NCBI GenBank assembly: GCA_050740915.1
Contig: JBOIEG010001140.1
Span: 1 to 35,994 of the forward strand
Length of the DNA: 35,994 nt
Reading direction: 5' to 3'
DNA from: Gammaproteobacteria bacterium
GTDB taxonomy: Bacteria; Pseudomonadota; Gammaproteobacteria; JBOHHR01
Made by a program: the position numbers and the translations under genes. How positions within the stretch are numbered: position 1 is the stretch's first letter; each line of letters starts with the position of its first letter. The notes beneath the pieces are model-generated. The model worked only from the letters and a program-made list of their open reading frames with translations. It had not been told where the DNA came from and searched no databases. Positions 31,501-35,774 of this stretch are shown here, piece after piece.

Positions 31501-34500
31501 GCCTGGCGGCTGGGAACGCTACCGGATGGCCGCCGCCGGAGGGGAATATCGTAAGCTGGTTTGAGGAGAAGGCTCAGGAAGCAGCCGAGACGCTCGCCGT
31601 GGAATGCGAAGGCGAACGATTGAGCTACGGGGAACTGAATCGACTGGCGAACCGCGTGGCAACGGGCTTGATTGAGCGCGGTATCGGTGGGGAAAGGCTG
31701 GTGGCGGTCGCCGCCGATCCCACCGTGGAGCGGGTGATCGTATTATTGGGGATTTTGAAGTCGGGAGCGGCCTATGTTCCGCTCGAACCGGAACAGCCAA
31801 AGCGGCGCTGGCAAGAGATCCTCGAAGAGGCTCGCCCTGACCTGGTGCTGGTTTCACCGGAGCACACCGGCAAGGTGCCGGAGGGCTGGGCTTGTGCGCC
31901 ACTGGACTCGGGGTTGAGCGCGTTTGCCAGACAGGCGGAGCAAAATCCTGCGGTACCGATCGCCGGCGAGCAACTTGCCTATGTGCTTTACACCTCGGGA
32001 TCCACGGGCAAGCCTAAGGGCGTTGCGGTGAGGCATGCGGGTTTGAGCAACCGCGTGAGCTGGGGAGTGCAGCGGTTTGGCTGGGGGCCAAGGGATAGGG
32101 TGCTGCAGCACACGGTCTTAGGATTTGATGTTGCTGGATGGGAGATCTGGGGCGCGCTGGTCGCAGGGGCGCGACTGGTCATCGCGAACGAAAAGGTGCA
32201 GCGCGACCCCGAGCGCTTGGTGGACCGGATGATGGAGCAGGGCGTGACCTGGATGGAAGCCGTTCCATCCCTCCTGCAGGCACTGCTGGAGGTGTCCGGC
32301 TTTGATCAGTGCCGGCGCTTGCGCGGTATCGGCTGTGGCGGAGAGGCGCTGAGCGGGGAGTTGCAGCGGCGCGTTCGAGAGCGGCTTCCGTGGGTAGGGC
32401 TATACAACCTGTACGGCCCAACAGAAGTGACGATCGATGCGACGCTTTGGACATGCGGTGATGACGGCGAGCCGGTGCCGATCGGCCGTCCCATCAGTAA
32501 CGCACAGGCGTATCTGCTGGATCGGGATCTCAATGCGGCGCCAGTTGGCGTGGCGGGAGAACTGTATATCGGCGGTGCGGGGTTGGCGCGCGGCTATCTG
32601 CGGCGTCCGGAGTTCACCGCGGAGCGTTTTCTTCCCAATCCCTTCGGTCCGCCAGGGACCCGCTTGTACCGGACCGGTGATCGCGGCCGTTACCGGGCCG
32701 ATGGTGCTATCGAATTCCTAGGCCGCATCGACCATCAGATCAAGCTGAGGGGATACCGGATTGAGCTAGGCGAAGTCGAGGCGCGGTTGTGTATACATCC
32801 TGCGGTAAAAGAGGCTTGCGCCGTGCTCAGTGAGGCAGAGCACGAGCGGCGCTTGGTTGCCTATGTGGTGGCAGAAGGCGTGAGCGCCGATGAGCTGCGC
32901 CGGTATCTGAGCGAACACCTGCCTGGTTATATGTTGCCTGCGGCGTTTGTATTTCTGCCGACCTTGCCGTTGACCCCTGCCGGTAAGCGGGATCGCAAGG
33001 CTTTGCCAGCGCCAGGAGCCGCCATGGCTAATACATACGCCGCTCCGCGCAACCTCAGCGAGCAATCGCTGGCCGAGGTGTGGGCCGACGTGTTGGGACT
33101 CGCTCGCGTCGGCATCCACGACAACTTCTTTGATCTCGGCGGTCATTCGCTGACCGCGATGCAGGTCATAGCGCGCATCCGCCATGTCTTTCGCCGGGAG
33201 GTCGCGTTACGGGCATTGTTCGATGCACCGACAGTAGCGGCGCTGGCCGCGAAAATGGTGTGCGCTGCGGGAGAGATCCAAGGGAGCCTGCCCGCGATCC
33301 GTGCGGTCTCGCGCGGCCGATCATTGCGGCTGTCGTTCGCCCAACAGAGGCTGTGGTTCTTGCACCAGATGGACCCGCGGAGCGCGGCGTACAACGTGCC
33401 GCTGGCGTTCAGGTTTCGGGGCCGGCTGGACCTTGCTGCGCTGGAGAGCGCGATAAATGAGGTGGTCGATCGGCACGAGGTTCTGCGCACGGTATTTCTG
33501 TTGTGCGGGGACGAGCCCATGCAGAGGATCCAGGCGTCTTGCAGGGTGCCGCTCGCTGTTACGGACTTGCGTCACCTGCCAGAGCAAGCGCGCTGGCCGC
33601 AGGCCAAGGACGAGGTACGCAAAGCGGCCGAGTTACCCTTCGACCTAGCGGTCGGGCCGGTACTTCGGGTGCGCCTATGGTGTCTAGGCCAACAGACCGG
33701 CGAGGAAGAGCACCTGCTGTTTTGGGTCTGCCACCATGTTTGCTTCGACGGCTGGTCAGCAGACGTCTTAGCGCGCGAGCTGATCGCCTTGTACCACGCC
33801 TTTGAAACCGGCCGGCCATCGCCCTTAGCGCTCCCCCCGATCCAGTATGCCGACTATGCCCAGTGGCAACGCCAGTGGCTTTCGGGAGCGCGGCTGGAAA
33901 AGGAGCTCGCTTATTGGAAGGCACAGCTTGCCGGGGCCTCGGGTGTGGTCGATCTGCCCACAGACCGTGTCCGGCCCGCGTTACTAGGCTCCCGAGGCGC
34001 CAGCTACCGTTTCTTCTTATCCGCAGGACTAACGCTGGCTCTCAGGCGACTGGGCCGGACGCAAGGCGTGACGCCGTTCATGGTGTTGATGGCCGCGTTC
34101 AAGACACTGCTCCATTGTTACAGCGGCCAGCGTGATCTGATCGTCGGGACGCCGGTTGCAAACCGGACTGCCTTGGAAACCGAGGGACTGATCGGCTGTT
34201 TTGTAAACATGCTGGTTTTGCGTACCCGGGTTAAAGAGGATGATCGCTTCCTGGATCTGCTCGAACAGGTGCGGGACGTTTGTCTCAGCGCTCAGGCCCA
34301 TCAGCAACTGCCGTTTGAGCGCCTAGTGGAGGCCTTGCGATTAGCGAGGGATATGAGCCGCAACCCGCTTGTCCAAGTGACCTTTCAGTTGCAGCATGCG
34401 GCGGTGGCTGCGGTCTCGGAACCCGCGCTGATACCGGTGGAGCTATCTCGCACGAGCGCTCAGTTCGAGCTATCGCTGGATCTGGCGGAAGCCGAAGGCG

Positions 34501-35774: not shown

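Follow-up and report, generated by a model that had tools for sequence, protein, structure and literature searches.

The locus described here raises the question of how the last carrier domain of an NRPS can be loaded when its module has no adenylation (A) domain of its own, and whether such a module is a working part of the line or a product of decay. The window, meaning the whole stretch of DNA that was analysed (35,994 nucleotides of contig JBOIEG010001140.1 from a Gammaproteobacteria bacterium), carries three NRPS genes, of which the last, N3 (25545..35774; this and all other features lie on the forward strand unless stated), encodes a protein of 3,409 aa. The ORF list, its translation, Pfam and a phmmer map built with the cluster's own domains give N3 the order C-A(Ser code)-T-E-C-A6-T6-C3-T3-TE. 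The complete module just upstream of the terminal C3-T3-TE contains A6 (31569..33014, aa 2009 to ~2490; code DVWEGGLIDK) and its cognate carrier domain T6 (33045..33269; Ser2535, PP-binding 64.5 bits), after which come the condensation domain C3 (33327..34628, aa 2595–3028, by Pfam and phmmer), a 29-aa linker, SVPIDARVKHRSAPPFTRTPRPDRAAPRN (34629..34715), the carrier domain T3 (34716..34931; Ser3092 at 34818–34820, PP-binding 61.0 bits), which has no cognate A domain, and the release domain TE (34989..35744; GWSLG with Ser3221 and a C-terminal GNHGD His, Pfam Thioesterase 79–85 bits).

These boundaries agree with the earlier note, which had placed a C-T-TE module without an A domain at 33320–34930, with C3 ending near 34620. 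In Pfam, N3 has a Condensation domain at residues 2595–3028, a third PP-binding domain and a Thioesterase at 3149–3390, with only two AMP-binding domains, both further upstream; phmmer bounds C at 2595–3028, T at 3058–3129 and TE at 3149–3400, leaving a C3-to-T3 gap of 29 residues. A Pfam scan of residues 2486–3409 at E ≤ 10 returned Condensation, two PP-binding, Thioesterase and weak hydrolase matches, and found neither AMP-binding nor AMP-binding_C, so that the gap holds no recognisable A domain. The adenylating domains of the cluster are six NRPS A domains and an N-terminal fatty-acyl-AMP ligase (FAAL), beyond which the window holds no further A-domain ORFs. The last module of N3 is thus confirmed to be truly without its own A domain, an arrangement that is unusual but well documented.

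Marks of pseudogenisation, such as frame breaks and lost catalytic motifs, are absent from C3, T3 and TE, and the three NRPS ORFs, ~28 kb in total, contain no stop codons or frameshifts. C3 retains its HHxxxDG motif (CHHVCFDGWS, H2730–G2736) and, at 362 bits in Pfam, outscores the other nine C-type domains of the cluster; by phmmer it is closest to the C domains N3_C1 and N1_C3, each of which comes straight after a T domain, no E domain intervening. The PP-binding score of T3 is mid-range (other T domains of the cluster score 35–69 bits), its attachment Ser and the GxSxG of TE are both intact, and T3-TE is 36–38% identical to the terminal T-TE of NRPSs from Methylocystis bryophila and Methylocapsa acidiphila. 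C3-T3-TE is therefore predicted to be a catalytically competent elongation module, and we infer that it is active. The attachment Ser of T3 lies in a rare GGYS motif, found once in 807 T domains; the single other instance also precedes a TE, in a complete module, and GGYS was dropped as a sign of decay.

Upstream of N3, the line begins with N1 (6744..16760), which reads FAAL-T-C-A(Gly code)-T-C-A(Dab code)-T-C and so ends in a C domain, followed by a stand-alone TauD-family oxygenase (16773..17825) and N2 (17783..25555, with a probable true start at 17822), in which a divergent C-like domain is followed by A(His code)-T-E-C-A(Thr code)-T. In the C-like domain HHxxxDG is replaced by HHALFVT, which lacks the DG, and the Pfam score is only 136.6 bits; by motif and position only, it is assigned as a putative non-catalytic ‘interface’ domain. 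Beta-hydroxy-amino-acid NRPSs of the siderophore type are recognised by a TauD enzyme combined with an interface domain ahead of the target A domain, the pattern seen here, with the putative interface domain, at the His-code A domain; the His code DSALIAEVWK has been reported to accept beta-OH modification (PMC12283262), and antiSMASH 8 added profiles for acyl-peptide siderophore clusters with a TauD beta-hydroxylase and an interface domain (PMC12230676). Read from the codes, the product would be acyl-Gly-Dab-(beta-OH)His-Thr-Ser-X-X, in which His and Ser are probably epimerised, since their modules contain E domains, and X is probably a diamino acid. The A6 code shares D-V-x-E-x-G-x-I-D-K with Orn/Dab codes; it had no match in one searchable code compilation and none in a literature search, and it resembles DVWEVGMVDK, found in the last A domain of Methylocapsa acidiphila L039. 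An A6-type code thus recurs in the terminal module of a related Methylocapsa cluster.

The explanation that we favour, and to which we give about an even chance of being right, is that the module at the end of N3 works without an A domain of its own and is charged from within the assembly line, most simply by A6. T3 would be aminoacylated by an A domain outside its module, and we infer A6 as the candidate, the most economical one, charging both T6 and T3. In that case C3 would link the acyl-hexapeptide on T6 to the residue on T3, and the acyl-heptapeptide released by TE would have one and the same amino acid at its last two positions. A complete C-A6-T6 lies directly upstream of C3-T3-TE on the same protein. 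T6 is also the best match to T3 among the T domains of the cluster; in a control set of 20 other A-less modules, however, the T domain of the nearest upstream complete module was the best match five times against 4.85 expected by chance, so the T3–T6 likeness is not diagnostic, and T-domain similarity was dropped as a predictor of the loader.

Charging of more than one carrier domain by one A domain has several precedents, each of which differs from N3 in some respect. HMWP2 of yersiniabactin biosynthesis, with the order Cy-A-PCP-Cy-PCP, is formally the C-A-T-C-T of N3. In the HMWP2/HMWP1 system, a single A domain charges the T domain of its own module and also A-less ones, both in cis and in trans. 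In capreomycin biosynthesis, the A1 domain of CmnA likewise loads CmnI (PMC12400406). The chemistry of these systems is different, involving either Cy domains that handle Cys or an A-less module that stands alone. In the AMB pathway of Pseudomonas aeruginosa, T2 of AmbE (…A-T1-C-T2-TE) is charged by the A domain of AmbB (PMC4357302); there, too, C-T-TE comes right after a complete module and TauD-type oxygenases are found in the cluster, but AMB derives from a tripeptide precursor and its loader is on a separate protein, whereas the candidate A6 is on the same polypeptide as T3. Fungal ferrichrome synthetases, which end in T-C repeats, have lost A domains, with iterative charging from the last A domain proposed as compensation (PMC2644324), and the repeated ornithine-derived residues of that siderophore parallel the proposed X-X C-terminus; these enzymes are eukaryotic, lack a TE and have T-C rather than C-T-TE units, making this a mechanistic analogy only. 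More tentatively, and with the balance of probability somewhat against it, the cluster could be an orphan lipopeptide line with a bacterial form of ferrichrome-style iterative charging, in which A6 loads two consecutive T domains in cis to give a beta-hydroxy-His lipoheptapeptide with a homodipeptide end.

Should the module be active, collinearity would mispredict the structure of the product by one residue. That product would be a lipoheptapeptide not described before, with beta-hydroxy-His and Dab, and N3 would be a compact C-A-T-C-T-TE example in which to study the access of one A domain to a second T domain. Should decay be the answer, the locus would show an NRPS cluster at an early stage of erosion. 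NRPS logic as currently understood would stand in either case, since A-less modules and both routes of loading are already established.

Decay, the rather unlikely alternative in which an in-frame deletion of ~1.5 kb took the A domain, leaving T3 never loaded and the line blocked or leaky, is kept under consideration because the cluster's diaminobutyrate transaminase gene (4280..5085) is a pseudogene with an internal, out-of-frame deletion of ~690 bp. Pfam positions 9–108 and 330–402 of this class-III aminotransferase lie in two frames, and 816 bp of the window align with 1,504 bp of the intact gene pair of Methylocystis iwaonis; the gene is dead although module 2 has a Dab code. It is followed by genes for an MbtH-like protein (5030..5350) and, on the reverse strand, an Sfp-type phosphopantetheinyl transferase (PPTase; 5835..6620). 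Peptidase_C39 and outer-membrane-protein genes upstream are also fragmented, so the large deletions that had been suspected in neighbouring genes are real for the aminotransferase, with a Peptidase_C39 fragment present as well. Further points in favour of decay are an IS at the 3′ end of the cluster and the C-A-T-TE ends of all three related clusters with readable terminal modules. The lack of transporter and receptor genes close by, in contrast to the Methylocystis clusters, also reads as a sign of erosion.

The linker itself would speak for a deletion if it preserved part of an A domain, and the earlier note had pointed to a ‘usual post-A N-cap’ at T3 and to a faint likeness to the end of an A domain. 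The N-cap is indeed present, but it is not diagnostic of a deletion, because most of the A-less T domains examined carry (A/P)PRxxxE...W too: among 25 A-less C-T junctions from other NRPSs, most keep an APRxxxE N-cap, and the 29 aa of the N3 linker fall within their main length cluster (mostly 19–45 aa). The A10 likeness is marginal. Against a PSSM built from 358 A10 motifs, the linker gave p = 0.018 when one gap was allowed but p = 0.68 ungapped, with a score of −11 bits, where the six genuine A10 motifs of the cluster reach +38 to +52; comparison with the six A-T junctions by BLOSUM, without gaps, gave p = 0.2. BLAST pairs VPIDARVKHR of the linker with LPLDANGKIRR of Methylocapsa acidiphila L039, a pairing that counts for decay together with the gapped p value. 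On these values, which we did not rely on, the stretch VPIDARVKHRSAP would be at most a badly degenerate A10 remnant. A MAFFT pairing of ‘NLFEQRM’ in the linker with ‘LFEAQA’ at the N-terminus of A domains was judged coincidental, since AAPRNLxEQ matches the A6-T6 linker instead.

Were it a remnant, its heavy divergence to −11 bits beside intact flanking domains would fit an A domain lost long ago, after which the A-less module stayed under selection. Decay also needs a deletion that kept the frame, had each of its ends within an inter-domain linker and left behind a linker of ordinary length, and C3, T3 and TE show no loss of motif or score. The NRPS ORFs run for ~28 kb without a frame-breaking lesion, in contrast to several such lesions in ~5 kb of flank. 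Intact motifs and high domain scores argue against recent, unselected decay.

Loading by a dedicated partner, as in SyrE, is unlikely. A free-standing A or A-T, with or without a SyrC-like aminoacyltransferase, would lie beyond the IS or elsewhere in the genome and charge T3, and the amino acid on T3 may in that case be tailored. That A-less modules can be loaded from outside was rightly taken as established from SyrE and SyrB1, and C-T-TE is the exact layout of SyrE module 9 (PMC8949500). In both cases, the syringomycin synthetase of Pseudomonas syringae and N3, a terminal C-T-TE without an A domain closes a lipopeptide NRPS, but here the line is split over three proteins, and no sequence orthology is established. 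The syringomycin cluster also has a TauD-family hydroxylase, SyrP; the hydroxylase of the present cluster, its sole tailoring enzyme, pairs instead with the interface-like domain and the His-code module, sitting directly upstream of them and not beside the last module.

Nothing in the window speaks for the analogy with SyrB1/SyrC that had been drawn from the sequence: its ORFs include no free-standing A or A-T, SyrC-like transferase or halogenase (such as a SyrB2-type enzyme that would tailor the tethered residue), a survey that effectively covers the upstream side only (6.7 kb upstream of, and the space between, the NRPS genes), where the earlier claim that no free-standing A-T or transferase is present holds. 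A stand-alone A-T gene is also absent from related Methylocystis clusters. The missing partner gene is nevertheless weak evidence, because an IS1182-family transposase gene (35880..35994), which marks the 3′ boundary of the cluster and runs off the window, starts 106 nt past the N3 stop codon, and the window ends 220 nt past N3. Downstream cluster genes could thus have been displaced, and for this reason a dedicated A-T partner elsewhere is still considered; related clusters hold genes for cupin-like, alpha/beta hydrolase, exporter and acylase proteins 3′ of the NRPS. The IS1182 call rests on tblastn against plasmids, in which the 38-aa N-terminus matched annotated IS1182 transposases at 76% identity; a Pfam scan of the same 38 aa gave no match. 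Overall, in-line double duty of an A domain is here at least as likely as SyrB1/SyrC-type loading.

It is very unlikely that T3 serves as an un-aminoacylated way-station, with the peptide passing from T6 to T3 or directly to TE by module skipping, or that C3 is non-condensing. Other NRPS systems do include skipped modules and C domains with modifying roles, but C3 scores highly, has its HHxxxDG intact, groups with the ordinary C domains of the cluster and bears no mark of a special subtype. Least probable of all is an assembly artefact in which repeated module sequences were wrongly joined and a genuine A domain was left out: short-read assemblies can collapse NRPS repeats, and a Methylocystis bryophila relative has nine near-identical modules, but junction k-mers of ≥14 nt have no second copy in the window and the NRPS genes contain no repeated exact 30-mer, which makes a collapse between repeated modules unlikely, and the linker is unique and unlike the C-A and A-T junctions of sister modules.

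Searches for orthologues returned distant relatives of the terminal module. Against a collection of 5.8 billion proteins, C3-T3-TE reached at most 52% identity among listed matches of up to ~1,450 aa, from which giant NRPSs are perhaps absent, and linker-T3-TE alone had a best match of 40% identity over about half of the query. A scan of genome contigs gave at best 50% identity, for the C domain only, metagenome contigs gave only two unrelated C-A-T-TE loci, and megablast of the window against plasmids gave nothing near. No orthologue of N3 was found in 185,579 species genomes or in JGI metagenomes, and no exact copy of N3 or the PPTase on look-up. The exact TauD has its sole occurrence on a 1.7-kb Logan contig (run SRR27067739), and a TauD variant (P0121) comes from a ~97%-identical relative; the syntenic contigs anchored on TauD (L078–L081) end before the terminal module.

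The nearest syntenic clusters, from Methylocystis and Methylocapsa, end in C-A-T-TE, at 36–46% identity and with other module counts. Two syntenic examples of the acyl-peptide siderophore type lie on Methylocystis plasmids. M. bryophila plasmid pDSM21852-1 reproduces the gene order in full, with DABA transaminase, MbtH, (PPTase) and a FAAL-primed NRPS ending in C, followed by TauD and an NRPS that opens with a divergent C-like domain ahead of an A domain with the His code DSALIAEVWK. M. iwaonis plasmid pSS37A-Re-2 shares only the transaminase, MbtH, FAAL and the Dab and His codes; a cupin-like gene takes the place of TauD, and the divergent C-like domain is missing. The Methylocystis clusters (identity 36–62%) differ from ours in their C-A-T-TE ends, in module number and in having genes for a TonB-dependent receptor, an exporter and an acylase; none of these, the siderophore transport genes among them, was found in the window. 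For several genes of the cluster, the closest relatives are methanotrophs.

Among the 150 best representatives, a ranking dominated by giant multi-module NRPSs and used solely as an architecture census, 18 contain A-less C-T modules, and two of the 49 TE-terminated proteins end in C-T-TE. A-less C-T modules with linkers of 19–45 aa and this APRxxxE N-cap are common among relatives, a recurrence that speaks for the favoured reading, and the end of N3, as its domains are predicted, is another. Longimicrobium L002 ends in C-A-T-C-T-TE, and P0272 and P0320 have an adenylating, FAAL-like domain first, as in N1, and C-T-TE last.

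A single NRPS cluster, on the forward strand, was resolved in the window from the ORF list, Pfam and the phmmer domain map. Its three NRPS genes, preceded by an Sfp-type PPTase, an MbtH-like gene and a class-III aminotransferase in two halves, encode N1 (6744–16760, +; FAAL-T-C-A-T-C-A-T-C), N2 (17783 or 17822 to 25555, +; a divergent C-like domain, then A-T-E-C-A-T) and N3 (25545–35774, +; C-A-T-E-C-A-T-C-T-TE), with a stand-alone TauD-family oxygenase (16773–17825, +) between the first two. N3 closes with a condensation domain, C3 (aa 2595–3028; 33327–34628, +), a 29-aa linker, a carrier domain, T3 (aa 3058–3129; 34716–34931, +), and a thioesterase, TE (aa 3149–3400). 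The Pfam scan gave no AMP-binding or AMP-binding_C signal at E ≤ 10 in this stretch, and with the domain map confirms both the A-less C-T-TE ending described in an earlier note and its coordinates. Catalytic motifs are kept in all three domains (HHxxxDG as CHHVCFDGWS in C3, the T3 serine in GGYS, GWSLG in TE). Against Pfam Condensation, C3 reaches 362 bits and leads the ten C-type domains of the cluster (the canonical C and E domains reach 219–323 bits, the divergent C-like domain 137), and T3 scores 61 bits, its sisters spanning 35–69. The T3 motif GGYSL (34809–34823) places a Tyr before the phosphopantetheine-attachment Ser; GGYS is rare, occurring once among the 807 T domains compared, and we rejected damage as its origin since that one case is likewise followed at once by a TE, within a complete module.

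At least one A-less C-T module was present in 18 of the 150 best representatives from a 1.84-billion-protein library, and the architecture is therefore a recurring and already known one. Endings of the C-T-TE type occurred in two of the 49 TE-containing best representatives (P0272 and P0320, whose N-terminal domain is adenylating and FAAL-like, as in N1) and in one of 14 TE-containing ORFs among the genome loci (Longimicrobium). A-less C-T linkers of the representatives cluster at 19–45 aa, a span that includes the 29 aa of the N3 linker, and most A-less C-T modules compared keep the '(A/P)PRxxxE…W' helix, which does not bear out its earlier reading as a post-A hallmark. Clear A-domain fragments persist in a few linkers (PLTSHGKVDKAAL in P0256, YRPTGAIEHLGRLD in P0373, KIDRKALKIP in P0306); in these proteins and P0241, fragments lie within C-T linkers of 34–90 aa, and the four represent snapshots of A-domain loss at differing stages. 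The census thus shows A-less modules originating through A-domain loss and then persisting, as likewise argued for fungal ferrichrome synthetases (PMC2644324). P0013, from a Thermoanaerobaculia MAG, has the Pfam order C, AMP-binding_C without an A core, T, second C and TE; the ~100 aa from the second C to the TE probably include a second T domain, with which it would end C-T-TE after a module keeping only the small A subdomain.

For N3 we favour a module that would have evolved its A-less state and been at least recently functional. Both ways of loading T3, in line or by a dedicated partner, have precedent; our preferred reading, at about even odds, is a scheme in which T3 would be charged in line, most simply by A6, the adenylation domain of the complete C-A6-T6 module directly preceding C3-T3. 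This arrangement is that of HMWP2, with its order Cy-A-PCP-Cy-PCP. T6 is the best match of T3 among the cluster's T domains, a likeness given no weight as a predictor of the loader since it performed at chance level on 20 other A-less modules. Precedents for an assembly-line A domain serving a second carrier are AmbB, which charges AmbE T2 in vitro (PMC4357302), and CmnA-A1, which serves CmnI (PMC12400406); iterative charging has been proposed for ferrichrome synthetases (PMC2644324).

It is rather unlikely that the module reflects decay, the A domain having been lost from an eroding cluster. The DABA (diaminobutyrate--2-oxoglutarate) transaminase (4280–5085, +) is a pseudogene (Pfam positions 9–108 and 330–402 in different frames; 816 bp aligning to 1504 bp of Methylocystis iwaonis), and its loss of ~690 bp out of frame bears out the large internal deletion suspected in a neighbouring gene. 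Fragmented genes lie further upstream, transport genes are absent near the cluster in the window, and an IS1182-family transposase gene (35880–35994, +; 76% identity over 38 aa to annotated IS1182 transposases) begins 106 nt past the N3 stop and runs past the window end, so that the cluster's 3′ flank is an insertion sequence. However, A-domain excision would have been in frame, with both ends inside inter-domain linkers and a typical-length linker left, the remaining domains equal or better their sisters, and the ~28-kb NRPS reading frame is free of any lesion. The faint likeness of the linker to A10, the motif ending A domains, proved marginal (p = 0.68 ungapped, p = 0.018 with one gap; −11 bits vs +38 to +52 for six real motifs), with BLAST pairing VPIDARVKHR to LPLDANGKIRR of the Methylocapsa acidiphila locus L039. 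Should the linker be an A10 remnant, it would imply an old loss with the module under continued selection, because the remnant is heavily diverged beside intact C3, T3 and TE; if not, the excision is clean. Design and decay are not mutually exclusive, since a long-standing A-less module may lie in a cluster whose erosion is recent.

Loading of T3 by a dedicated trans partner, the SyrE-like scheme put forward earlier, is unlikely. Its mechanism has precedent in the A-T protein SyrB1 for SyrE (PMC8949500); neither the 6.7 kb upstream nor the gaps separating the NRPS genes hold a dedicated partner gene, and the insertion sequence cuts off what lies downstream. Some other non-canonical use of C3-T3 is very improbable. 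An assembly artefact is scarcely credible, and repeat-mediated collapse at the C3-T3 junction is unlikely because no junction k-mer of at least 14 nt recurs in the window and no exact 30-mer is repeated anywhere across the NRPS genes. The cluster is an orphan with an A-less terminal NRPS module of an already known type; the earlier observation holds, and its interpretation is supported in part.

No C3-T3-TE orthologue was found in a 5.8-billion-protein collection, 185,579 species (one genome each) or JGI metagenomes. The exact TauD protein was recorded only on one 1.7-kb Logan contig, and a 97% variant on short contigs only. TauD homologues of 61–65% identity share the order, a FAAL-primed NRPS with a C-domain end and then TauD, followed by another NRPS in L078 and L079 and by an ABC transporter in its place on the Methylotetracoccus contig L081; the contigs of this set end short of any terminal module. 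Fuller relatives are two annotated methanotroph plasmids: Methylocystis bryophila pDSM21852-1 (DABA transaminase, MbtH, NRPS, TauD and an 11,262-aa NRPS ending C-A-T-TE) and M. iwaonis pSS37A-Re-2 (DABA transaminase, MbtH, a cupin-like gene, FAAL and a four-module NRPS ending C-A-T-TE), the latter, unlike the window, without a TauD gene or divergent C-like domain. Near both lie TonB-dependent siderophore receptor genes, a cyclic-peptide export ABC transporter and a penicillin-acylase-family gene. L039 ends Ser-Thr-X'-T-TE, its last C, A and T-TE sharing 46%, 50% and 38% identity with C3, A6 and T3-TE. From the comparison with these plasmids and L039, the cluster family probably makes acyl-peptide siderophores. 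The last module is complete in family members with readable terminal modules, but their distance and differing module numbers make these relatives unsuitable as a before/after pair for a deletion. The 11,262-aa M. bryophila NRPS (L085, record 75856–109644) is a single ORF that includes nine modules with equally scoring A domains, all reading DVWHISLVDK (Ser); it is either a genuine poly-Ser assembly line or an artefact of repeat assembly, and an insertion of ~300 aa interrupts its last A domain.

Specificity codes were extracted by hand and then by script. From published codes, we take N1_A1 (DILQLGLVWK) to select Gly, N1_A2 (DIWELTADDK) Dab, N2_A2 (DFWNIGMVHK) Thr and N3_A1 (DVWHVSLIDK) Ser. 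Because the transaminase is broken yet N1 module 2 carries a Dab code, the pathway must either draw Dab from another source or run short of it. N3_A2 (A6; DVWEGGLIDK) received no assignment; its code resembles DVWEVGMVDK of the terminal module of the M. acidiphila relative and has D-V-x-E-x-G-x-I-D-K in common with Orn and Dab codes; a diamino acid would be a low-confidence guess. The code of N2_A1, DSALIAEVWK, is reported as a His code accepting beta-hydroxylation (PMC12283262). A C domain closes N1, the TauD gene follows (16773–19093, + for the region) and N2 opens with its C-like domain, HHALFVT in the HHxxxDG position, before the His-code A domain. A stand-alone beta-hydroxylase paired with an 'interface' domain is arranged in this way, a type for which profiles were added in antiSMASH 8 (PMC12230676), and the layout points to a system apparently serving beta-hydroxy-histidine, a recognised metal-chelating group (PMC12971057).

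Upstream, a putative outer-membrane protein gene (1566–2833, +) may be divided between two ORFs that overlap, of which only the second (2102–2833) matches Pfam (MetA-pathway/Phenol_MetA_deg family); if split, it would be a further broken gene. An apparently intact pair of TacA-like antitoxin (PF08681) and GNAT toxin (3259–4132, +) has the broken flanking genes on one side and the cluster on the other. A small ORF (102–422, +), whose product has a signal-like N-terminus, may include a double-glycine leader (…NADLDSVYGG) and has a tail rich in Gly and Pro (GPGVGPGGPGG…, closing with CGGH), adjoins Peptidase_C39 gene fragments (551–1462, +). Together they may be what is left of an export locus for a glycine-rich bacteriocin or microcin.
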